Below are positions 1 through 9,412 of a DNA stretch of 64,000 nt, in pieces. A program made the translations under genes and the position numbers. The stretch's first letter is position 1. Each line of letters opens with the position of its first letter. The notes beneath the pieces were generated by a model, which saw nothing but the letters and a program-made list of their open reading frames with translations, was not told the origin of the DNA and searched no databases. Source of the stretch: Deltaproteobacteria bacterium (GTDB lineage: Bacteria > Myxococcota > Kuafuiibacteriia > Kuafuiibacteriales > Kuafuiibacteriaceae); NCBI GenBank assembly GCA_040218735.1, contig JAVJQW010000018.1:64001-128000 (forward strand), read 5' to 3'.

Positions 1-59
1 TCGTATCGAGCGCGCGGATCACTTGGGGAGACTGCGATCGAACGCGCTCGAAAGAAAAC

Positions 60-1097
60 TCAAGTCTGGGCGAAACGGTGGACGCGGGACTTCTTGTTCT
101 TCTCCGCCACGACGATCAGGTCGGTGGTGTCGCGATCGAAGCCGATGCCCTCGGGTTTTGTGCCCTTCGAGTCCGGGATGTCGGTGATCCCCACCAGCTC
201 GATGGAGAGGTTCTCGATGAGCCCTCCGCGTTGGGGCTGCGTCTGCTGCTTCAACTCCAGCTCCACGATCGTGCGCTCGCGATCGCTCAGGCAGAACACG
301 TGCCCGGTCTCGGGGTGCACCGCGACGTCGCTGATGTCGAGGAGGTGCTCGCGCGCTTGCCGCGGCACGCGGAACGACTGCGCCGGCTGCAGCGGGCTGT
401 CGTTGCCGTCCGGGGGGATGTCGAAGATCGAGATCTGTGGCGGGTCGGCTTCGTGGATCGCGATCAAGCGATCCGCGCCGTCCGTGAAACGACCGGGGAG
501 GATCGCGATGCCCTCCCAGCCGTTGTCCGTGCCGTCGTTGAGGCGCGGCAGGGACCCGAGCGGGATCGGCGCGCCCGCGCTGAGGTCGTTGCCCGAGCCC
601 GACAGCGGGATGCGGTAGATCGTCCGCGAAGCCTCCGAGACGACGAACGCGTTCTTCTCGGCCGCGTCGACCGTGATGCCCTCGAGGTCCGACAGCTCGG
701 GTGTGTAGTGATCGTGGTCTTCGTCCTTGGCGTGGAGGAGGGCTTTGGACTTGCCGTTCTTCTTCACGAAGAACACGCCGCGGCAGTCGTCGATGACGAG
801 CATCCGCCCGCCGCTGAGCGGGGCGACGCCCGAGGCCTCGGAGACGTCGAGTTTTTCGACGCCCCGGTGGTCGAGGCGCGCCGCGGAGGGGAGCGTGGTC
901 TTGAAGCGCGAGACGACCCGGCGGCCGGCCTTGTCGGTGAAGGCGTCGAAGCGCGCGGCGATCAGCGCGTCGATCTCCGGTCGAACCTCGTCTTCCTTGC
1001 CGGCGGGGGCCGCCTCGTAGAGCGCGTCGATGTCTCGGGCGCGGATCTCGGGGGCGGTTCGGAGCCGGGACAGGAGGCGGCCGACGTCGCTCGACAT
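60..1097 (-). CDS. SdiA-regulated (YjiK-like) beta-propeller protein with N-terminal helical extension
   Basis: Repeated blade motifs EASG, DLEGIT, GWEGIA, DISDVAVH, KPEGIGFD; no signal peptide; 345 aa ORF. Confidence 0.7.
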   Translation of the reverse strand: MSSDVGRLLSRLRTAPEIRARDIDALYEAAPAGKEDEVRPEIDALIAARFDAFTDKAGRRVVSRFKTTLPSAARLDHRGVEKLDVSEASGVAPLSGGRMLVIDDCRGVFFVKKNGKSKALLHAKDEDHDHYTPELSDLEGITVDAAEKNAFVVSEASRTIYRIPLSGSGNDLSAGAPIPLGSLPRLNDGTDNGWEGIAILPGRFTDGADRLIAIHEADPPQISIFDIPPDGNDSPLQPAQSFRVPRQAREHLLDISDVAVHPETGHVFCLSDRERTIVELELKQQTQPQRGGLIENLSIELVGITDIPDSKGTKPEGIGFDRDTTDLIVVAEKNKKSRVHRFAQT

Positions 1098-1199
1098 GAC
1101 ACCAGGCTGTCACATCCGACGGAGGTAGGGAATCCTCCGTTTGGGGCCTACATCGAGGGGGCTTGGCTTCGACCCCGCCCCGTTGCTCTCCTCGTCGCG

Positions 1200-1577
1200 A
1201 TGCGGTGGCTGAAGCGGATCTTCGTGGTCGTCCTGCTCCTCGGGGCCGCGGGGTTCGCGGGGTACCGCATCTACCGCGGGGATCCGGTGCGAACCTATTG
1301 GTGTCGCCTCGCACCGTGCACCGAGCTCGACGGCTACGACGCGCTCTGTCGCGCCGCCTCCATCGCCGAGCTCGCGGACGCCGAATGCCCCGCTCGGGCG
1401 CTCCCTACGCTCGTCGCCGAGGACCCGGACGCGACGCCGGTCCGTGAAGCGCTGACCGTCGCCCTCGACCGGCCGGCGCCGTACCCGGCGCTCGAAGCCC
1501 AGGCTCGCGCCGCCGGTGCGCCCGACTGGCGGTGCCCGCCGCTGTCTCGCGTCGTGACGTCGACCTGCGCCCGGTGA
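1200..1577 (+). CDS. Hypothetical membrane-anchored Cys-containing protein
   Basis: ATG at 1200; MRWLKRIFVVVLLLGAAGFAGY N-terminal TM segment; six Cys, C-terminal WRCP. Confidence 0.6.
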   Translation: MRWLKRIFVVVLLLGAAGFAGYRIYRGDPVRTYWCRLAPCTELDGYDALCRAASIAELADAECPARALPTLVAEDPDATPVREALTVALDRPAPYPALEAQARAAGAPDWRCPPLSRVVTSTCAR

Positions 1578-1643
1578 GGGTCCACCCCCGACGCATCATT
1601 TTCTGGCAGGTTCGAAAGGCACGGTCGGTCGAATCTGCAGGAC

Positions 1644-2177
1644 GTGCCATTGGGGCGGAACGAAGTGTCGGGGCTGACGGTCGATGAAATCGAAGAACTC
1701 TATGGTCGCTACGGTGAGAGCGTGCTGCATCGGTGTCGGCAGTTCGTCCGGAGCGAGGCCGAAGCGTGGGACGCGATGCACCAGACGTTCGTCCGCGCCA
1801 TCAAGTACCGGACGAGTTACCGCGCCGAGTGCCACCCGCGCACCTGGCTCTTCACCATCGCGACCCGCGTCTGCATGGACGAGCTGCGCACGAAGAAGAA
1901 ACACGCCCACGGCTCGATCGAAGACGCCAACGAGCCGCACGACGACGGCGCGGTCCCGAGGACCCTCGAGGCCCAGCTGTCGCACCAGAAGACGGTCACA
2001 CGCCTGCTGTCGCTGTTCTCCACGAAGATCCAGGAGATCGTCGTGATGCGGTACTTCGACGAGATGGAAGTGAAGGAGATCTCGGCGCAGACCGGGCTCT
2101 CGGAGCGGACGGTGGCGCGCCGCCTGAGTCAGTTCATGGATCGCTCGCGCAGGATCCTCGAGGAGCAAAGCGCATGA
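1644..2177 (+). CDS. ECF RNA polymerase sigma factor (sigma-70 family)
   Basis: Region 2 'AWDAMHQTFVRA...RTWLFTIATRVCMD', region 4 'MEVKEISAQTGLSERTVARRL'. Confidence 0.9.
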   Translation: MPLGRNEVSGLTVDEIEELYGRYGESVLHRCRQFVRSEAEAWDAMHQTFVRAIKYRTSYRAECHPRTWLFTIATRVCMDELRTKKKHAHGSIEDANEPHDDGAVPRTLEAQLSHQKTVTRLLSLFSTKIQEIVVMRYFDEMEVKEISAQTGLSERTVARRLSQFMDRSRRILEEQSA

Positions 2178-2923
2178 ACACTTCGAACAAACCGTACACG
2201 GCGCGGGAGCTGGAGGACTACGTGGTGGGTGAGCTCGCCGCGGAGCGCGCCGCCGTGATCGAAGCCGCCGCTGAGGAGGATGAGTCGTTGTCGCAGTATC
2301 TCGAGTCGCGCAAGAGCGAGCGCGCCGCGTTCCTGCACGACCCCCGTCGCCGCAACTTCCAGTCGCTGGTCGACGAAGCCGGGGTCGAGAAGAAACGCGC
2401 GTGGTTCGCGCTCCCCGCGCTCGCGTTGGCGGGGGGGATCGCGGCCGCGGTGGTGTTGATGCCGACCACTCCGACCACGCCGTCGAACACGGGCGGTATC
2501 CGTACCAAGGGCGGCATCTCGGTCCAGGCCGCGGTCCTCGCGGGCGAGCGCCCCGAGCTCTTCGACGCGACGAAGGCGCTGCACCCCGGCGACCGCATCC
2601 GACTCACCGTCGACGATCCCACCGGCGGTTACGTCACCGTGATCCTCGAGGAGTCGTCCGGCGCGGTCGACGTGTTGTACCGTCCGACCGAGCTCGGTGA
2701 GCTGCGCCCCGGTTCGCACATGCTCCCCGACAGCCTCGAGCTCGACGACAAACTCGGGCGCGAACGCATTTACGTGATCATGTCGAACGAAGCGCAGGAC
2801 CCGAAGGCTTGGCTCGAAGAGATCCGCGCGTCGCACGCGAAGGCCGGCTTCGGCCACGGCTGGTTGCCGCCCGGCGGGACGCGCGTCGGGACGATCGAGT
2901 ACGAGAAGGTCGACACGAAGTGA
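2174..2923 (+). CDS. Single-pass anti-sigma factor with periplasmic DUF4384-like domain (ActD-like)
   Basis: ATGA overlap with sigma stop; N-terminal 'LEDYVVGEL...' anti-sigma-like helices lacking the HxxxCxxC Zn ligands; TM helix AWFALPALALAGGIAAAVVLM; 'LHPGDRIRL...LPDSLELDD..GRERIYV' DUF4384-like region. Confidence 0.75.
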   Translation: MNTSNKPYTARELEDYVVGELAAERAAVIEAAAEEDESLSQYLESRKSERAAFLHDPRRRNFQSLVDEAGVEKKRAWFALPALALAGGIAAAVVLMPTTPTTPSNTGGIRTKGGISVQAAVLAGERPELFDATKALHPGDRIRLTVDDPTGGYVTVILEESSGAVDVLYRPTELGELRPGSHMLPDSLELDDKLGRERIYVIMSNEAQDPKAWLEEIRASHAKAGFGHGWLPPGGTRVGTIEYEKVDTK

Positions 2924-4503
2924 AGCTCGCCGCCCTCGCGCTCGCGGCGACGGTGATGCTCCCCGCCGCGGCCCGCTCAGAGACGCGCTTCGCGCTGCTC
3001 GTCGGGCACAACGTAGGGGACCTGCACGAGACGCCGCTGCGCTGGGCGGAGTCCGACGCCACGCGGATGCTCCGGGTCCTCAACGAGATCGGCAACGTGC
3101 GCGAAGACCGCGCCGAGCTCCTCCTCGCGCCGAAGAAGGAAGAGATCGAGCGCGCGCTCCTCAAGATGGAAGGGCGCATCGAAGAGGCGAAGAACCGCGG
3201 TGAGCACACCGTCGTGTTCTTCTACTTCTCCGGGCACGCCGACCGCGAGGAGCTCCACCTCGCGACGGAGAAGATCAACATCCAGCAGGTCGAGAAGATC
3301 CTCCAGGACGGCCCCGCGGACACTGTCGTCTCCGTGATCGACGCGTGCCAGAACGACCGCTCCCCGCGCGTGCGCAACAAGGGTGCGACGCGCGCGCCGT
3401 CGTTCAACTGGCCCACGGAGGGCGTCGCCTCGCCGGAGGGGTTCGTGCGCGTGCGCTCGGCGTCGGAGGGGGAGGTCGCGCAGGAGTCCGACGACCTGCA
3501 GGGCTCGCTCTTCACACACCACCTCCTCTCCGGGATGCGCGGTAGCGCTGACCTCGATCGCGACGGTGTCGTCACGCTGTCGGAGGTCTACCGCTACGGC
3601 TACAGCCGCACGCTCGCGGACAGCCACGGGCAGTCGACCGCGGTCCAGCACGGCAAGCTCGACATGAAGCTCGCGGGGCGCGGCGCGCTGGTGTTCACGT
3701 ACCCGCGGCGCGCGGTGTCGGCGCTGTCCTTCGAAGACATCCGTGGGCACCTCCTCGTCATCGACGACACGAGCGCACGCATCGTCGCCGAGACGCAGCT
3801 CAACGACGGCGGCACCCGCCTCGCGCTCGCGCCCGGTAAGTACCGCATCCAGGTCCGCGGTGAAGGGCGCGTCTACAGCGGCCTCGTCGCGCTGGGCACG
3901 GGAGAGAAGCGCGTCGCGATGCAGGACCTCTCCGAGCAGCCGGTGCTCGCGGTGCTCACGAAGGGCTCGAGCTACGATCCCTACCCGTACCTTCTGCACG
4001 TCGGCGCGCAGGTCGGCCGTTCGCAGGTCGCGGACTTCGCGATGGCGGGGGGCCTCCGCATCGGGTTCGCGTACCGGTTGAGCGACACGTTCCGCGCCGC
4101 GGCTTCGCTCGACGTCGGCTACGCGCAGACCTCGAACGAACTGTGGCAGTACCGCCAAGGGGAGGGTGCGTTCCTGCTCGGCGTCGACTGGACGGGGCGC
4201 GTCGGTCCGACCTTCATGCTCACGTTCGGTGTACGCGCGGGGGTCGCGTCCGTGATCCAGAGCGGCGAGCGGAGCGACACGGAACGCCTGCAGGCGGCCG
4301 GGTTCGCGTCGTCCACGACCACTTCGTCCCAACGTGCGCTCGGACCGAAGCTCGGTGCAGCGCTCGGCGCGGAGTATCACCCGTGGTCGCGCGTGGGGTG
4401 GCGACTCGCGGTGGAGCCCACCGCGGTGTGGATCGAAACGGCCGACGGTACGTCGTTGCGGCCGGGTGCGCAGGGCGTGCTCGCGTTGGTGGTGCGGCTA
4501 TGA
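2920..4503 (+). CDS. Exported caspase-family (peptidase C14) protease with C-terminal outer-membrane beta-barrel
   Basis: GTGA overlap; signal peptide; 'RFALLVGHN', catalytic 'YFSGHAD' and 'VIDACQ'; EF-hand-like 'ADLDRDGVVTLSEVY'; PEGA/Ig-like 'LAPGKYRIQ'; alternating amphipathic strands ending ...LALVVRL. Confidence 0.85.
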   Translation: MKLAALALAATVMLPAAARSETRFALLVGHNVGDLHETPLRWAESDATRMLRVLNEIGNVREDRAELLLAPKKEEIERALLKMEGRIEEAKNRGEHTVVFFYFSGHADREELHLATEKINIQQVEKILQDGPADTVVSVIDACQNDRSPRVRNKGATRAPSFNWPTEGVASPEGFVRVRSASEGEVAQESDDLQGSLFTHHLLSGMRGSADLDRDGVVTLSEVYRYGYSRTLADSHGQSTAVQHGKLDMKLAGRGALVFTYPRRAVSALSFEDIRGHLLVIDDTSARIVAETQLNDGGTRLALAPGKYRIQVRGEGRVYSGLVALGTGEKRVAMQDLSEQPVLAVLTKGSSYDPYPYLLHVGAQVGRSQVADFAMAGGLRIGFAYRLSDTFRAAASLDVGYAQTSNELWQYRQGEGAFLLGVDWTGRVGPTFMLTFGVRAGVASVIQSGERSDTERLQAAGFASSTTTSSQRALGPKLGAALGAEYHPWSRVGWRLAVEPTAVWIETADGTSLRPGAQGVLALVVRL

Positions 4504-5438
4504 GGCGGTGGTGGCTCGGCGTTTCGTTGCTCGCGGCGTGTGGGCCCGTGCGCGGCGGCGAAGATCTCGGCCCGCCGATTCACACGTTCTACGCGGACCT
4601 CCAGGGCGATGCGATACCGGAGGTCGAAGGTGAGCTGCGCGTCGTCTTCGGCTGGATGTCCTACGGCGACGGCCCTTGGGTGCAGTGCTTCGAGCGCACC
4701 GGACGTTTGCTGGAGTGTGGCTTCCCCGCGGCGTCGGACTACGAGACGAAGCTCGTTCTATTCAATGTCGCGGCGCAACCTCGCTTGCCGGGCGGTTTGG
4801 AGATCCCGTTCTACGACTTCCCGGAGCTCGACGATCTGATCGTCCACAACGACTCGGTGTTTGCGTTCGGTGGGCTCGCGCTCTACGACGATCGCAACGG
4901 CAACGGTGAGCTCGACCCGATCGAACCGAACGACGCCAATCCGGACATCGTCCTCGCCGAGTCCGTGATCACCGAGGTGAGCACCCTCGCGATCTTCCAC
5001 GAGGGCGCCGAGGAGCATGCGATCAAGGAGGGCATCTTCGATCGCGCGCTCGACTGCCCGGAGGCGCCGCAGGGGTACTCGGTCGGCAAGTACACCCGCG
5101 AGGGGGGCTGTGAGATCGGGCGCAACACGCCGCTGCTCATGACACGCTCGGATCCCGCGCAGCTCGGGCGCGCACGGTGCGGCGGGGCGATCGCCGGGCT
5201 GACCTTCGAGGGGGGCGCGAAGGAGCCGCCGCCGACGCTCCCGCCGAACGCGGTCGTCGAGTGCGGCGTGAACAACGCCATCGTGGTGTGGCTCGACAAC
5301 GGCGGGTACTGCGACCGGTACCGGCAGACCCGCTACACCCTGCAATCACCGCCGGCGACCCCGCCCGCGGACCGCTGGGACCTCATCGACGACCCGCCCG
5401 AGTACTGGCAGTGTAGAATCGTACGCGGGGGAGGTTGA
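4500..5438 (+). CDS. Cys-rich lipoprotein
   Basis: ATGA overlap with caspase stop; lipobox LLAAC; DxNxNG Ca-binding-like motif 'YDDRNGNGELD'. Confidence 0.75.
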   Translation: MRRWWLGVSLLAACGPVRGGEDLGPPIHTFYADLQGDAIPEVEGELRVVFGWMSYGDGPWVQCFERTGRLLECGFPAASDYETKLVLFNVAAQPRLPGGLEIPFYDFPELDDLIVHNDSVFAFGGLALYDDRNGNGELDPIEPNDANPDIVLAESVITEVSTLAIFHEGAEEHAIKEGIFDRALDCPEAPQGYSVGKYTREGGCEIGRNTPLLMTRSDPAQLGRARCGGAIAGLTFEGGAKEPPPTLPPNAVVECGVNNAIVVWLDNGGYCDRYRQTRYTLQSPPATPPADRWDLIDDPPEYWQCRIVRGGG

Positions 5439-5445
5439 CGGCTAA

Positions 5446-5477
5446 CGCAGCGTGTCATAACAGAATGACACGCTGCG
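5446..5477. promoter_or_regulatory. Perfect 13-bp inverted repeat (operator or terminator hairpin)
   Basis: CGCAGCGTGTCAT-aacaga-ATGACACGCTGCG between the lipoprotein stop and the SD (AGGAG) of the next gene. Confidence 0.55.
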
Positions 5478-5508
5478 CCAAAGGGATGGTGCGGCCAGGA
5501 GAAGCACC

Positions 5509-6006
5509 ATGGCAAGCAAGGAAACCCGCGCCAAGGCCGCCCCGAAGGCGTCCAAGGCCAAGTCCACCACCACCTCCACCCGCAGCAAGAAGAAGCGCGC
5601 CGCGAAGAAACCCTCTGCGGCCGCCCGCCGCTCGAGCGCCAAGAGCTCGGGGGCGAAGCGCCCGGCCACCGCCGTCGGGCGTGTCGCGTCGGTCCTCCCC
5701 GGCGCCCTCCGCGACGCGAAGTACGTCAAGCGTACCCTCGAGATCCTCGACAGCCGTGAGCGCAAGCGCGAGCGGCTCGACCAGCAGACCAAGAAGCAAC
5801 TCGTCGGCGTCGTGAAGGACATCCAGACCGACGTCACCGACCGCATCGAAGCCGAGCGCGACGCCGTGAAGCGCCGCGTGGACGACACGGTCGAGAAGGC
5901 GAAGCAGACGAAGGTCGGCCAGCGGATCGACGAGGTCGAAGGCCGCGTCACGAAGGCCGTCGATCGCTGGCTCGCGCGCGTCGGCCTGCAGCGCAAGGCG
6001 GCCTAG
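5509..6006 (+). CDS. Histone-H1-like K/A/S-rich N-terminus plus phasin-like amphipathic helical C-terminus
   Basis: AGGAG SD; basic low-complexity first 55 aa; C-terminal helical 'VEGRVTKAVDRWLARVGL' resembles phasin-family tails. Confidence 0.6.
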   Translation: MASKETRAKAAPKASKAKSTTTSTRSKKKRAAKKPSAAARRSSAKSSGAKRPATAVGRVASVLPGALRDAKYVKRTLEILDSRERKRERLDQQTKKQLVGVVKDIQTDVTDRIEAERDAVKRRVDDTVEKAKQTKVGQRIDEVEGRVTKAVDRWLARVGLQRKAA

Positions 6007-6069
6007 GCTGCGCGCAGCGGGCCGGCGTTATGGCCTGATCCCGCTCCCCCGGGGTCCCGAGTGACCCCA

Positions 6070-6114
6070 TCGCGGTGCGCCCTGCCCAGCGGCCCTGGGC
6101 GGGGCGCGCTGCGA
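6070..6114 (+). terminator. Long GC-rich hairpin downstream of the phasin-like gene
   Basis: TCGCGGTGCGCCCTGCCCAG-cggcc-CTGGGCGGGGCGCGCTGCGA; about 20-bp stem whose mismatches are G-U pairs on the + strand; no U-tract. Confidence 0.45.
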
Positions 6115-6131
6115 GACCATCGCCGCTCGCT

Positions 6132-6147
6132 CGGCACGACGCTTGCG
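6132..6147 (+). promoter_or_regulatory. Sigma-54 promoter (-24/-12)
   Basis: CGGCAC-GACGC-TTGCG, GG-N10-GC. Confidence 0.65.
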
Positions 6148-6159
6148 ACTCGTCGCCGC

Positions 6160-6489
6160 ATGGCGAGCATCGAAAACAGCTTCGCGAACATGACGGCGAA
6201 CGTGGCCGGAGGATTTTCGAATCAGATCCTCGGCCAGGCGAGCTACATCAACCGGCTCCAGCAGGGCGGCTCCGCCGCGGCGAGTGGCGGAACGAGCCCG
6301 GAGCAATTCGTCGCGCGGCTCAACGCCGACCCGATGCTCCAGCAGCGCGCCATCCAGGCGATGCAGAAGGACCCCCGGCTCATCGGCAAGGCGATCCGCG
6401 ACCTCTCGGCCCGCCCGCATCTCGCGCGGCAGCTCCCGCCCGCGATCAAGCGGTTCCTCACGCAGGCGATTCAGAGCGGAGGTTACTGA
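6160..6489 (+). CDS. Small hypothetical protein (109 aa), N/S/G/Q-rich N-terminus
   Basis: ATG at 6160, strong GC3 codon bias; MASIENSFANMTANVAGGFSNQ... Confidence 0.65.
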   Translation: MASIENSFANMTANVAGGFSNQILGQASYINRLQQGGSAAASGGTSPEQFVARLNADPMLQQRAIQAMQKDPRLIGKAIRDLSARPHLARQLPPAIKRFLTQAIQSGGY

Positions 6490-8282
6490 GCGCCTTCGTT
6501 CTGGATGTTCCGCATGAGGACGAGCAGCGTCGATGGGATCAGTTCGGGGTGCTCGCGAAGGACGCGGCGGATAACGAACTTCGCGAGGTCGCTCGGCTCG
6601 CGTGGGCGCAGTTCCCTCAGTCGAGGGAACTTGTCGAGGATGCGTTGGGCGAGGCCGTGCCCCGATGTCTCACGGAGCCAACGCGGGCACAGAATCACCA
6701 AGTCGGCGCGAACGTAGTCGATCTCGACGCGATCTGCGCGCTCGTCGTCCGGGCACAGGGCGTCGGATACGAAGTCCGCAATCCCTTGCAGGGCCTCCCG
6801 GTCCAAGTTTCCGAGGGATGAGAACTTCGTGTCACCGAGGTCGGATCGAGAGAAGGCCTCCTCGCGGATGCCCAACGCTCCGACCAGCAGAGGATCCAGG
6901 AGGACGTTCTCGATCGCGTAGGCGTTCCCACCGCCCACGACCTGGATTCCATCCGTACTCTCCGCTCGCCCATCGTGATCCACGATGCCGAAGACACGGT
7001 CGTTCCCTGCCTTGCGCAATTGCTTGACGAGGTTTCGAACCATCGCGCATCCACCGCCTTCGTCGCCTTGCTCGGCTCTGTTGGCGGGGTTGATTCGCTT
7101 TCGTCCCGCCGTAATGAAACTGAGCGCAATCTCCGGCTCGAGCTGATCTCGGAGCAGCTCGTAGACTCCGTCATAGATCTCTGCGTCAAAGGATGCTTCG
7201 ACGAACACCTGTCGGCGGTGTTCGTGGTCGACACGAAGCGATGGTACCCCGGACGTCAGGAGTCCGAGGGCATGGTCCTTCGTGACTTTCTGGAGACGCG
7301 GTATCTCGCCAGGCTTCATCGCAAATAGCGATTCATCCGGAGCGAGGGCAACCATGGACGGCGAATGGGTGGCGAGAATGACGGAGGTACCGCGGTCGAC
7401 GAGTGTCGCCTGCAGGTCGCGCACGAAAGCCCTCATGAGCTTGGGGTGGAGGGCGGAGTCGACCTCGTCCAGAAGCATGATGCGTGCAGCCGGGGGCGTG
7501 CCAATGGTCGAGCCTCCGTGCACGAACTGGTGCACGAGCAGCGAAAGTACCGCGCTCTCGCCTGAGGACAGGCCTCCGAACTCCACCTCGTGGCCCGCTT
7601 CGCGGTGTAGGAGACGCAGTCGAAGATCGCAGTCGACATCCTGGGGCGCCAACCCCTCACCCACCAACTCATAACCCAGCGGAGCGATTGCCTTGTTGAA
7701 TGAGGCTTCGACGGGTGCGCCATACTTCTCTCGATATTCGTCGTCGTCCAGAACCCGAGAGAGTGGCCGTTGGCCGTCGTACTTCAGATAGCGATTGCGG
7801 CGGTGGTACTCGGCTTCGAGCTGTTTCACTCGAATCGTGGAGGCGAGCTCGAGCGTGAAGGGGCGCCCACCGAATGATTTGTTCGAAAAGATGTGCGGGA
7901 GCGCGTGCCCTTTGATGTGGTCGTATCGGAGACTGCCGGGGTCCTCGATCTCGAGCGCATCCGCGATGCGTTGGAGAATGTCGGAATCTCCATGACGGCG
8001 CTCCGCCCAGATCCGCGCTGCGTCTTCGCCGAGGTTTCGAAGTCGGCCGTTGTAGTTGCGCGTGAGTAACTCGTGCTCGATCCAGGGATTGAGTGTCGTC
8101 ACGTAGGCCCGAGCGCTCTCCTCCATGGCGGGGATCGTCTCGATGGCGCCGTCCTTGATGCCCCAGAGCAGATGCGTTTTGCCCGTGGCGTTGAGTCCCG
8201 TGACGACGACGAAATCCGGAAGCTCGATCTCGGGAAAAGGTTCGAGCGAGCGAAAGCCTTCGTTCGAGCGAATCTTCAGCAT
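6483..8282 (-). CDS. ABC-type (AAA_21) ATPase fused to TOPRIM/DUF4435-like nuclease domain (OLD/PARIS-like), candidate defence protein
   Basis: Walker A GLNATGKT, signature LSSGE, Walker B LLDEVDSALHP, H-loop ATHSP; TOPRIM 'VFVE...D', 'GIVDHD', 'YAIENVLL'; more A/T at third positions than flanks. Confidence 0.8.
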   Translation of the reverse strand: MLKIRSNEGFRSLEPFPEIELPDFVVVTGLNATGKTHLLWGIKDGAIETIPAMEESARAYVTTLNPWIEHELLTRNYNGRLRNLGEDAARIWAERRHGDSDILQRIADALEIEDPGSLRYDHIKGHALPHIFSNKSFGGRPFTLELASTIRVKQLEAEYHRRNRYLKYDGQRPLSRVLDDDEYREKYGAPVEASFNKAIAPLGYELVGEGLAPQDVDCDLRLRLLHREAGHEVEFGGLSSGESAVLSLLVHQFVHGGSTIGTPPAARIMLLDEVDSALHPKLMRAFVRDLQATLVDRGTSVILATHSPSMVALAPDESLFAMKPGEIPRLQKVTKDHALGLLTSGVPSLRVDHEHRRQVFVEASFDAEIYDGVYELLRDQLEPEIALSFITAGRKRINPANRAEQGDEGGGCAMVRNLVKQLRKAGNDRVFGIVDHDGRAESTDGIQVVGGGNAYAIENVLLDPLLVGALGIREEAFSRSDLGDTKFSSLGNLDREALQGIADFVSDALCPDDERADRVEIDYVRADLVILCPRWLRETSGHGLAQRILDKFPRLRELRPREPSDLAKFVIRRVLREHPELIPSTLLVLMRNIQNEGAQ

Positions 8283-8295
8283 CAGATCAACGTCG

Positions 8296-9363
8296 CTACT
8301 CGCCGTCGCGTTCGGCTTCGTCGATCCGACGCATCCCCTCGAGCAGCAGGTTCATCACGCCCTGCTGCACCTTGTCTTCCTTGGGGATCTCGAGCGGGTC
8401 GAACCAGAAGTCGCCGCGCTGCCAGGTGAGGAGCGCGTAGAGCGCCTCTTCGCCGAGGGTCGCGTCGAGCTTCACCGAGTAGATGCGCCCGTCCTTGTAA
8501 CCGACGATGCCCTGGCGGTTGTTGTAGTCGTCGACGTACAGCGTGCCCGAGCGTCCGGAGTCCGCGAGGACCTGCACGACGGTCACGAGGTTCATCACGT
8601 CGAGCTTGCCGGAGAACGGCTTCGCGCCTTCGCGCACGAAGCGGAAGTTCGACGCCACCAACCGCGACGCCATCAGCCGCGTGAAGCGCGCCGCCATGAA
8701 CGGGTTCTCGCGGAGGAGCAGATCGAAGTCGTTCTTGTCGACGACGTACAGCGACACGTCGCCGCGCGCCCGCACCGTGGCGGCGGTGGGGGTGCCGGTG
8801 AGGATCGACATCTCGCCGAAGCAGTCCTTCGCGCGTAGCCGCGTCAGCACCGACGCGACGTCGTGCTCCGCGAAGTCCATCACCTCCACCGTGCCTTCCG
8901 CGACCACGAAGAACGCGCGGCCCGGGTGCCCCTTCTGGAGGATGACGTCGCCGTCGCCGTAGCGCTCGACGCGCATCCGGTGCGCGAGCTCCGCGAGGAA
9001 CGTCGCCGGCAGTGCGCGGAATATCGGGATGCTCCTGAGGTGCGCGACGGCGCCGGGGATGTCGTCGATGACCTGGCCCGTGACGGGCCGCGGCTCGAAG
9101 CGCTCGGGGAGCTCCTCGACGTCGAACGTCACCGGGTTGTTCGCGCGCGGGCAGCGGAACTCACCGCGCTCCATCGGCGAGCCGAGGGTCTCGCAGTGGG
9201 TCGCGTCGCTCTCGGCGAGGAACTGCGCGACGGCGAGCGTGCAGATGTTCGTGGAGCTGCCCTTGTCGATGCCCGGGAGCTCGAGGACCATCTGGTCGCC
9301 CACTCTGAACAGCGGGCAGTCGACCTCTTCGGCCACCCGAAGCATCACGCGCCGCGAGGTCAT
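8296..9363 (-). CDS. Cys-motif N-terminal domain + cyclic-nucleotide-binding domain + DUF4388 (PatA_N-like)
   Basis: 'GDVILQKGHPGRAFFVVAEGTVEV...FGEMSILTG'; C-terminal 'FSGKLDVMNLVTVVQVL..SGTL...GEEALYALLTWQRGDFWF...LLLEGMRRIDE'; alternative TTG start at 9378. Confidence 0.8.
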   Translation of the reverse strand: MTSRRVMLRVAEEVDCPLFRVGDQMVLELPGIDKGSSTNICTLAVAQFLAESDATHCETLGSPMERGEFRCPRANNPVTFDVEELPERFEPRPVTGQVIDDIPGAVAHLRSIPIFRALPATFLAELAHRMRVERYGDGDVILQKGHPGRAFFVVAEGTVEVMDFAEHDVASVLTRLRAKDCFGEMSILTGTPTAATVRARGDVSLYVVDKNDFDLLLRENPFMAARFTRLMASRLVASNFRFVREGAKPFSGKLDVMNLVTVVQVLADSGRSGTLYVDDYNNRQGIVGYKDGRIYSVKLDATLGEEALYALLTWQRGDFWFDPLEIPKEDKVQQGVMNLLLEGMRRIDEAERDGE

Positions 9364-9412
9364 CCGCGCGGGATTCAACCACGCTTGGGTGCGTGCGTCA
9401 CGTTTCGCCCGG

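Follow-up and report, generated by a model that had tools for sequence, protein, structure and literature searches.

Positions 64,001 to 128,000 of contig JAVJQW010000018.1 from a Deltaproteobacteria bacterium (GenBank assembly GCA_040218735.1), hereafter called the window (64,000 nucleotides (nt), numbered from its first letter), carry a compact block of four genes on the forward strand. They encode a sigma factor of the extracytoplasmic function (ECF) type, a membrane anti-sigma factor, an exported caspase homologue of the C14 family with a predicted outer-membrane barrel, and a lipoprotein. The order of the first three genes is kept in most related loci, and the anti-sigma factor and the caspase share a conserved R-x-[K/R]-G motif. 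These features point to a possible envelope switch in which the caspase would cut the anti-sigma factor. The elements of the locus are as follows (aa, amino acids; TM, transmembrane).

1644-5438, + strand: four-gene block (ECF sigma factor, anti-sigma factor, secreted C14 caspase, lipoprotein).
1665..2177, + strand: ECF sigma factor with sigma2 and sigma4 domains; TIGR02937 match above cut-off.
2174..2923, + strand: single-pass anti-sigma factor, 249 aa, with an anti-sigma-like cytoplasmic N-terminus, a TM helix and a DUF4384-like periplasmic domain.
2405..2461, + strand: TM helix, anti-sigma residues 78-96, the most hydrophobic 19-residue window (mean Kyte-Doolittle 2.26).
2501..2512, + strand: R110-T-K112-G113, candidate site-1 motif of the anti-sigma factor; K112 is the 16th residue past the TM helix (15 between).
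2579..2791, + strand: DUF4384-like domain, anti-sigma residues 136-206 (E 3e-4, below the curated cut-off).
2920..4503, + strand: secreted C14 caspase homologue, 527 aa, with a signal peptide, a caspase domain (21-252), a beta-sandwich (258-340) and an eight-strand barrel (357-526).
3235..3237, + strand: catalytic His106 (S-G-H motif), His in 81/81 relatives.
3340..3348, + strand: D141-A-C143, the catalytic Cys after an invariant Asp (D 81/81, C 81/81).
3373..3384, + strand: R152-N-K154-G155, candidate self-maturation site in a low-confidence loop after the catalytic Cys.
3988..4497, + strand: predicted 8-stranded outer-membrane beta-barrel, caspase residues 357-526 (structure model and Foldseek).
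4500..5438, + strand: lipoprotein of no known family, 312 aa, with lipobox Cys14, a D-x-N-G-N-G-x-L-D loop and a beta-sandwich model.
5447..5476, + strand: hairpin of 12 bp, starting 9 nt past the last stop codon.

All three gene junctions consist of stop/start overlaps of 4 nt (ATGA at 2174, GTGA at 2920 and ATGA at 4500), exactly where the original prediction, an earlier annotation made from the letters of the DNA, had placed them. The identity that it had given to the four genes also agrees with Pfam and NCBIfam matches, with an AlphaFold2 (AF2) model, with Foldseek comparisons and with the lipobox. The G+C content of the block is about 0.67-0.70. The hairpin at 5447-5476 folds with -25.7 kcal/mol (z -4.18), none of 200 shuffled sequences folded equally well, and it is likely to mark the end of the operon. 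A promoter scan within the four-gene block returned no sigma-70-type promoter. Overlapping genes, a terminal hairpin and no internal promoter are together consistent with one transcription unit.

The sigma factor matched the Pfam families Sigma70_r2 (E 2.3e-12, 46.9 bits, cut-off 24) and Sigma70_r4_2 (E 1.2e-9, 38.1 bits, cut-off 25.7), and scored 79.4 bits against TIGR02937, the sigma70-ECF family, for which the cut-off is 42.9. Having only the sigma2 and sigma4 domains and a length of 170-177 aa, it belongs to the ECF class (group 4). GTG 1665 is more likely to be its start codon than GTG 1644, the start assigned earlier, because the ortholog from the same genus (G001, 82% DNA identity) keeps GTG 1665 but has GAG at 1644, and because a more distant relative (G006) is similar in DNA from 1665 onwards. 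Here and below, published work is cited from parts of the sources. ECF25 anti-sigma factors often carry DUF4384, and this group includes Deltaproteobacteria, Spirochaetes and Fibrobacteres, like the loci described below (Casas-Pastor et al. 2021, PMC7826278). The sigma factor of the window is a circumstantial fit to ECF25, by anti-sigma type and taxa. As to the conserved context of ECF25, a caspase is named nowhere in the main text of PMC7826278 or in the examined part of its supplement.

The second gene had been read as an anti-sigma factor with one TM helix and an exported DUF4384-like domain. The helix was located at residues 78-96, and the domain was found with a score below the Pfam cut-off (PF14326; 21.2 bits against 27, E 3e-4, profile positions 2-80 of 81). 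We call it DUF4384-like because the copy in the window lies under the cut-off, yet many relatives match the family (21 of 38 at E <= 0.01). The gene calls of ten relatives were identical, letter for letter, to public entries, and all eight clusters include a "DUF4384 domain-containing protein". Class I (ZAS-type) anti-sigma factors are recognized by an H-x3-C-x2-C zinc motif (Pfam zf-HC2). The anti-sigma factor of the window gave no zf-HC2 match and lacks the zinc His/Cys ligands; among the 38 aligned relatives, five matched zf-HC2 at E <= 0.01. It also gave no TPR or CHAT match, which separates it from the DdvA type, where TPR-CHAT is fused to the anti-sigma factor. Searching with the profile of the anti-sigma alignment retrieved 53 proteins, whose sole informative name was "anti-sigma factor RsiW". 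Its family and its position directly 3' of the sigma gene suggest that the protein binds and inhibits the cognate sigma factor.

The third gene encodes a caspase homologue (Peptidase_C14, 58.3 bits, cut-off 21.4) with the caspase fold. Its catalytic dyad, His106 and Cys143, is present in all 81 relatives, and an E-S-D segment is, like the dyad and Asp141, invariant or nearly so. The N-terminus is a hydrophobic leader, modelled as a helix. The AF2 model, built with 26 relatives, reached a predicted local distance difference test score (pLDDT) of 86.8 and displayed eight long strands between residues 357 and 526, a block with a pLDDT of mostly 86-97. In Foldseek, the N-terminal part of the model retrieved caspases and MALT1 (E down to 2.5e-9), and the C-terminal part retrieved the OmpA transmembrane barrel 9fzd_A (TM-score by target 0.74) and Ail (3qra, 0.69). 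Moreover, a relative (L062) gave a sub-threshold match to OMP_b-brl. The signal peptide, the intact dyad and the barrel-like C-terminal region of the original prediction thus all stood, and its proposal to look for the barrel by structure prediction led to a predicted OmpA-like barrel of eight strands. A search of PDB sequences with the caspase profile returned a single match, Arabidopsis metacaspase-9 (E 0.0088). With NCBIfam NF047832 (caspase, EACC1-associated type) the protein scored 49.1 bits, below the cut-off of 140.

Barrels of the OmpA type begin and end on the periplasmic side. Because the N-terminal domains precede such a barrel, the caspase and beta-sandwich domains should face the periplasm and not the cell surface; the original prediction had spoken of a surface signal. 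A signal peptide at one end and an OmpA-like barrel at the other would bring the protease together with the DUF4384-like domain of the anti-sigma factor in one compartment.

The fourth gene encodes a protein with the lipobox L-A-A-C14, whose Cys14 is invariant in an alignment of 26 sequences; a pattern search detected a lipobox in 31 of 34 relatives, and the D-x-N-G-N-G-x-L-D loop is conserved. Neither Pfam nor NCBIfam gave a match. The protein was modelled as a beta-sandwich (pLDDT 73.8), for which Foldseek against the PDB returned nothing at E <= 0.001. In a wide VIA-align comparison the best Z was 5.1, the level of generic beta-sandwiches, and secretin pilotins scored Z 4.3-4.6. The ESM Atlas returned hypothetical Myxococcota clusters only, with YscW/META-type lipoproteins at TM 0.26-0.34, under the bar. 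A pilotin-like role is a weak lead only.

The presence of the lipoprotein gene follows the type of caspase. Among loci with at least 1000 nt available downstream, it accompanied 26 of 32 caspases of 505-540 residues and none of 32 caspases of 599-824 residues. The lipoprotein may be an accessory of the short, barrel-type caspase only, as a pilot, a gate or a sensor. Fusion of the lipoprotein into the long caspases was considered and rejected, as its profile matched in 0/32 long-caspase loci. The long caspases (599-824 aa; L012, L014, L019, L027, L035, L042 and others) share the sigma/anti-sigma context without a lipoprotein gene, and contain no Pfam domain besides Peptidase_C14. In L036 and L042, the barrel part of the profile matches again in the extra sequence, which could mean a larger barrel.

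A scan of one genome per species with profiles built from the window proteins, and iterated on the loci found, gave 80 loci. They are mostly from Myxococcota, with a few labelled Fibrobacterota/Fibrobacteria, Spirochaetota/Spirochaetales, Bdellovibrionales or Bradymonadales. Where at least 800 nt were available upstream, 57 of 71 loci have the anti-sigma gene directly 5' of the caspase gene and in the same orientation. Where at least 1500 nt were available, sigma and anti-sigma genes both precede the caspase in 52 of 70; four further loci contain both elsewhere within the locus. The gene order that the original prediction had expected to be conserved in relatives is thus kept, mostly within Myxococcota. 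Overlaps of 4 nt recur at the sigma/anti-sigma junction in 42 of these 52 loci and at the anti-sigma/caspase junction in 36, and the arrangement therefore exceeds chance. The upstream neighbours differ from locus to locus (71 upstream open reading frames (ORFs), chosen by hand from 140 listed, were scanned), so the cassette is self-contained; none of these 71 contained a sigma-54-activator or GGDEF domain.

The cassette is also repeated within genomes. The source genome (11.6 Mb) contains 17 caspase matches and at least seven full sigma/anti-sigma/caspase cassettes, four of them with the lipoprotein. Such paralogous expansion is typical for signalling modules. Three Myxococcus genomes together gave 20 matches to the anti-sigma family (E <= 1e-20), and a caspase match follows directly after 17 of them. 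One orthologous anti-sigma set in these genomes has no adjacent caspase match (G031:C271:18732-19541, G032:C5:29215-30042, G033:C45:197025-197819), and two of its three members contain an internal TAA inside the match. Likewise, one orthologous caspase set has no adjacent anti-sigma match (G031:C659:170-1174, G032:C88:439521-440513, G033:C40:193811-194803).

The best-conserved feature of the anti-sigma family, whose mean identity is about 29%, is a short motif outside the membrane. Among the 53 proteins, K or R and the following G are each present in 52, the sole miss being a truncated gene call, and an R stands two residues before the K or R in 29. The motif sits 8-53 residues (median 13) beyond the TM helix and before the Pfam-defined domain. 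The same motif recurs in the caspase, with R in 67, K or R in 81 and G in 81 of 81 sequences. There it lies in loop 148-159, 11 residues past the catalytic Cys; no other long loop of the domain was modelled with such low confidence (pLDDT < 50). We take this loop to be the inter-subunit linker position at which caspases and metacaspases self-process. Asp141, which is invariant and stands two residues ahead of the catalytic Cys, presumably occupies the S1-pocket position of Arg/Lys-specific metacaspases. Metacaspases cleave after Arg or Lys (PMC3501461). The common motif gives indirect support to a protease-substrate relation, with the caspase acting on the anti-sigma factor.

A whole-genome search revealed, in three Myxococcus genomes, a variant of the locus without a sigma gene. 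In L103 (G031:C102:9500-19500, positions 1189-8539), the genes for a GGDEF protein, a response-regulator/sigma-54 activator, a GNAT acetyltransferase, a membrane protein of the DUF4384 type and a 746-aa caspase all point the same way, and G032:C10 and G033:C79 are arranged likewise. The DUF4384-type protein contains G-I-K-G after its helix, and its gene overlaps that of the caspase by 4 nt. As the sigma gene is missing, this is a variant and not the same cassette. It shares the GGDEF gene with the act operon of M. xanthus (actABCD, named in PMC4320627); ActA is counted among GGDEF proteins, and actA lies upstream of actB (PMC4877007). The variant possibly corresponds to this developmental act locus.

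Altogether, these observations can be arranged into a self-contained envelope switch acting by regulated proteolysis, a reading to which we give about an even chance. The cytoplasmic N-terminus of the anti-sigma factor, as family and position suggest, would hold the ECF sigma factor at the inner membrane. The caspase would leave the cytoplasm and be held in the outer membrane by the eight-stranded barrel at its C-terminus, with the protease and beta-sandwich in the periplasm and the lipoprotein as an accessory to this type of caspase. Upon a cue, it would cut its own loop at R-x-K154|G155 and become mature. The mature enzyme would then make the site-1 cut in the anti-sigma factor at R-x-K112|G113, at the 16th residue outside the helix, and so remove the DUF4384-like domain. 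The short stub left in the membrane could be taken over by an RseP-type site-2 protease, and the sigma factor would be freed. The genome contains Peptidase_M50 matches (PF02163, RseP-type) above the cut-off, two of which span the full profile, and a site-2 protease thus appears to be available. We infer each of these biochemical steps from gene content, coupling, conservation, predicted folds and motifs.

Several points weigh against this switch. A conserved operon order does not reveal the direction of action. With zinc ligands and a zf-HC2 match absent, only gene position and family membership point to binding of the sigma factor by the anti-sigma factor. The conserved K-G might have a structural role, such as starting the first strand of the periplasmic domain, or could be a pseudo-substrate, and both the S1-pocket argument and the caspase-3-like spacing draw on general knowledge of caspases. 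The family caspase lacks an anti-sigma gene directly upstream in 14 of 71 loci, and the protease therefore has other contexts. Finally, the pair of DUF4384-like protein and caspase exists without a sigma gene, so that release of a sigma factor is not its sole output. A prediction of the complex of caspase 20-350 with anti-sigma 98-249 scored 0.27 and 0.22 against a mark of 0.32, and was used neither for nor against.

The persistence of the pair in the locus with GGDEF, sigma-54-activator and GNAT genes also suits an inverse arrangement, with the caspase as output. Here the anti-sigma factor would dock on the caspase through its DUF4384-like domain and inhibit it, with R-x-K-G as a pseudo-substrate or slow substrate. 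Removal of the anti-sigma factor by another protease or by stress would free the sigma factor and unleash the caspase on envelope proteins, for remodelling, lysis, defence or development. The tight pairing of the two genes fits an inhibitor equally well. In Haliangium, the inhibitor PCi is itself cleaved by PCaspase, whose substrate range is broad (bioRxiv 2023.06.23.546230), and in other proteins DUF4384 is fused to protease domains (bioRxiv 2022.08.17.504292). However, the same motif in the maturation loop of the caspase suggests true cleavage, and the motif is juxtamembrane, where a cut yields a site-2 substrate, a placement that an inhibitor does not need. Moreover, the operon encodes no other candidate substrate. 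We consider this arrangement unlikely, both in the docking of the inhibitor and in the release that would follow.

Contact signalling of the FecA-FecR kind would do without proteolysis by the caspase: the outer-membrane protein would sense a cue and relay it by binding to the periplasmic domain of the anti-sigma factor, a general periplasmic protease would cut site-1, and the caspase fold would be mainly a binding or self-processing module. The architecture is matching (an outer-membrane protein, an inner-membrane anti-sigma factor with a periplasmic domain, an ECF sigma factor), and many paralogues per genome are also found in cell-surface signalling systems. Nevertheless, a dyad, an Asp before the Cys and an E-S-D segment that are invariant or nearly so in 81 sequences argue for a working protease, and the eight-stranded barrel has neither a plug nor a ligand channel. 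Contact without cleavage by the caspase is therefore improbable in our view, as is a fold reduced to binding or self-processing. Mere co-regulation, with caspase and lipoprotein as regulon members that have their own envelope job (quality control, predation or programmed lysis), draws on the frequent inclusion of regulon members downstream in ECF operons, on the family caspases that stand without sigma or anti-sigma genes and on the discussion of metacaspases as possible autolytic enzymes in Myxococcus development (Asplund-Samuelsson et al., PMC3501461), but it is very improbable, as it leaves unexplained the near-obligate adjacency or overlap specifically with the anti-sigma gene, the persistence of the pair without a sigma gene and the common motif.

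The association of sigma and caspase genes in operons has been known since 2012, and the proposed mechanism, regulated proteolysis of an anti-sigma factor, is of a familiar kind. Four of the five metacaspases of M. xanthus DK1622 are in predicted operons with sigma-70-family factors, and a sigma/metacaspase operon also occurs in Anaeromyxobacter, Haliangium, Sorangium, Ralstonia and Fibrobacter (Asplund-Samuelsson et al. 2012, PMC3501461). The gene association is the same as in our loci and the taxa match. The examined passages of that paper list the neighbourhood and describe no anti-sigma factor, DUF4384, barrel, lipoprotein, motif or mechanism. In the literature searched, which covers the PMC7826278 supplement only in part, no barrel, lipoprotein, motif or site-1 role is described for these C14 proteins.

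By analogy, DdvA/DdvS of M. xanthus is the nearest mechanistic counterpart, closer than the Haliangium set. There, too, a single-pass anti-sigma factor holds an ECF sigma factor, and a caspase-family protease is proposed to act at the periplasmic juxtamembrane linker, ahead of RseP: the periplasmic TPR-CHAT fused to the anti-sigma factor in DdvA is the proposed site-1 protease (PMC11506125). RseP-dependent degradation of a truncated DdvA anti-sigma factor has been demonstrated (PMC11506125, PMC6061681), whereas the cleavage of DdvA itself is a proposal. The systems differ in that the DdvA protease is fused to the anti-sigma factor and would, as proposed, act in trans between the partners of a dimer, while the cassette encodes its protease separately, as a C14 protein that carries a predicted outer-membrane anchor of its own; the anti-sigma factor bears TPR-CHAT in DdvA and a DUF4384-like domain in the cassette. 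The Sigma-E/RseA/DegS/RseP system follows the same logic of a periplasmic site-1 cut, a membrane site-2 cut and release of an ECF sigma factor (summarised in PMC11506125). Its site-1 enzyme is an inner-membrane serine protease, in contrast to the outer-membrane-tethered, operon-encoded caspase homologue proposed here.

Two CRISPR-related systems show a looser likeness. In the type III-E craspase, the caspase-like Csx29 (TPR-CHAT) cleaves Csx30, an anti-sigma-like protein bound to the ECF-type sigma factor RpoE, and DUF4384, which is often fused to proteases, is one class of C-terminal domain of Csx30 (bioRxiv 2022.08.17.504292). The craspase is tied to CRISPR RNA targeting; Csx30 has been likened to the membrane-localized RseA, and its cleaved fragment is released into the cytoplasm. 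Its protease would thus act in the cytoplasm, whereas the caspase of the cassette is exported. In Haliangium ochraceum, SAVED-CHAT activates PCaspase, which cleaves the sigma factor itself (PCc-sigma), and PCi, according to the authors' prediction, is similar to CI-2 serine-protease inhibitors, with no membrane anti-sigma factor named in the parts of the text cited (bioRxiv 2023.06.23.546230). The original prediction had invoked this set as a relative. Indeed, in both a myxobacterium encodes a C14-type caspase next to a sigma factor and the signal is, or would be, proteolytic, but the activator, the cutting of the sigma factor and the CI-2-like PCi differ, and the likeness, by description only, is loose. 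The proteins of the Haliangium set are probably cytoplasmic. Window positions 1-9378 (9.4 kb examined) contain no CRISPR gene, no gene of a cyclic-oligonucleotide-based antiphage signalling system (CBASS) and no SAVED-CHAT activator; with different neighbours and a caspase bearing a signal peptide, the block does not have the make-up of a SAVED-CHAT/PCaspase defence module.

To our knowledge, bacteria with complex development carry many caspase homologues, almost none of which has a known natural substrate. The cassette offers a specific enzyme-substrate pair with predicted scissile bonds after Lys112 of the anti-sigma factor and Lys154 of the caspase. If the proposed switch is true, it would represent a new class of site-1 protease for ECF sigma signalling, would give the DdvA model an experimental footing and would link exported caspases, through the DUF4384 module, to the sigma-controlling caspase-like proteases of type III CRISPR systems. 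As it is multi-copy (at least seven cassettes in this genome) and occurs in several phyla, the module may account for a sizeable share of the orphan ECF systems in its host groups.

A wider and speculative extension, which we regard as a long shot, is that the cassette is a proximity sensor spanning the envelope. An outer-membrane protease would reach a site about 15 residues above the inner membrane only upon rearrangement of the membranes or of intervening proteins, possibly through envelope damage, contact, predation or a developmental change of shape, and the lipoprotein would set the threshold. The paralogues would then form a family of caspase-gated switches, with the sigma-less, act-like branch timing Myxococcus development, and signalling proteolysis at R-x-K|G, not cell death, would have been the original job of these caspases.

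Regions around the operon were also analyzed, and contain the following features.

1599..1635, + strand: conserved intergenic block, candidate promoter/operator, from the same-genus comparison with G001.
78-1577, + strand: 499-aa ORF directly 5' of the cassette, no Pfam match.
6483-8282, - strand: 599-aa AAA_21/AAA_15 ATPase; the Pfam family is described as "putative AbiEii toxin" ATPases.
8296-9378, - strand: cyclic-nucleotide-binding domain fused to DUF4388.

The intergenic block at about 1599-1635 is near-identical in the window and in G001, while the remaining spacer has a 10-nt indel and mismatches. A search upstream of the operon found no sigma-70-type site. A two-block k-mer count over 56 upstream regions gave subfamily-specific pairs only, such as GTGAC...GGTG in 13 and TCCCA...GTCT in 11 of the 56, and neither example fits the spacer of the window.

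The neighbours within positions 1-9378 are the 499-aa ORF, an ORF with a weak, sub-cut-off Phasin-like match, the AAA_21 ATPase and the cNMP-binding/DUF4388 protein. The 3' end of the 499-aa ORF is kept in the same-genus G001; the cassettes of other taxa do not include this ORF. The G+C content falls to about 0.61 at 6500-8500, the stretch of the AAA_21 ATPase, against about 0.69 around it, and the ATPase gene is possibly acquired and of defence type.

Finally, two loci of the scan, L080 (BNCN01000015.1) and L060, are labelled Comamonas sp. and "uncultured Enterobacteriaceae" and carry typical caspases of the myxobacterial family. These labels may be wrong; a DdvA-like protein has also been noted in "one Comamonas species" (PMC11506125).

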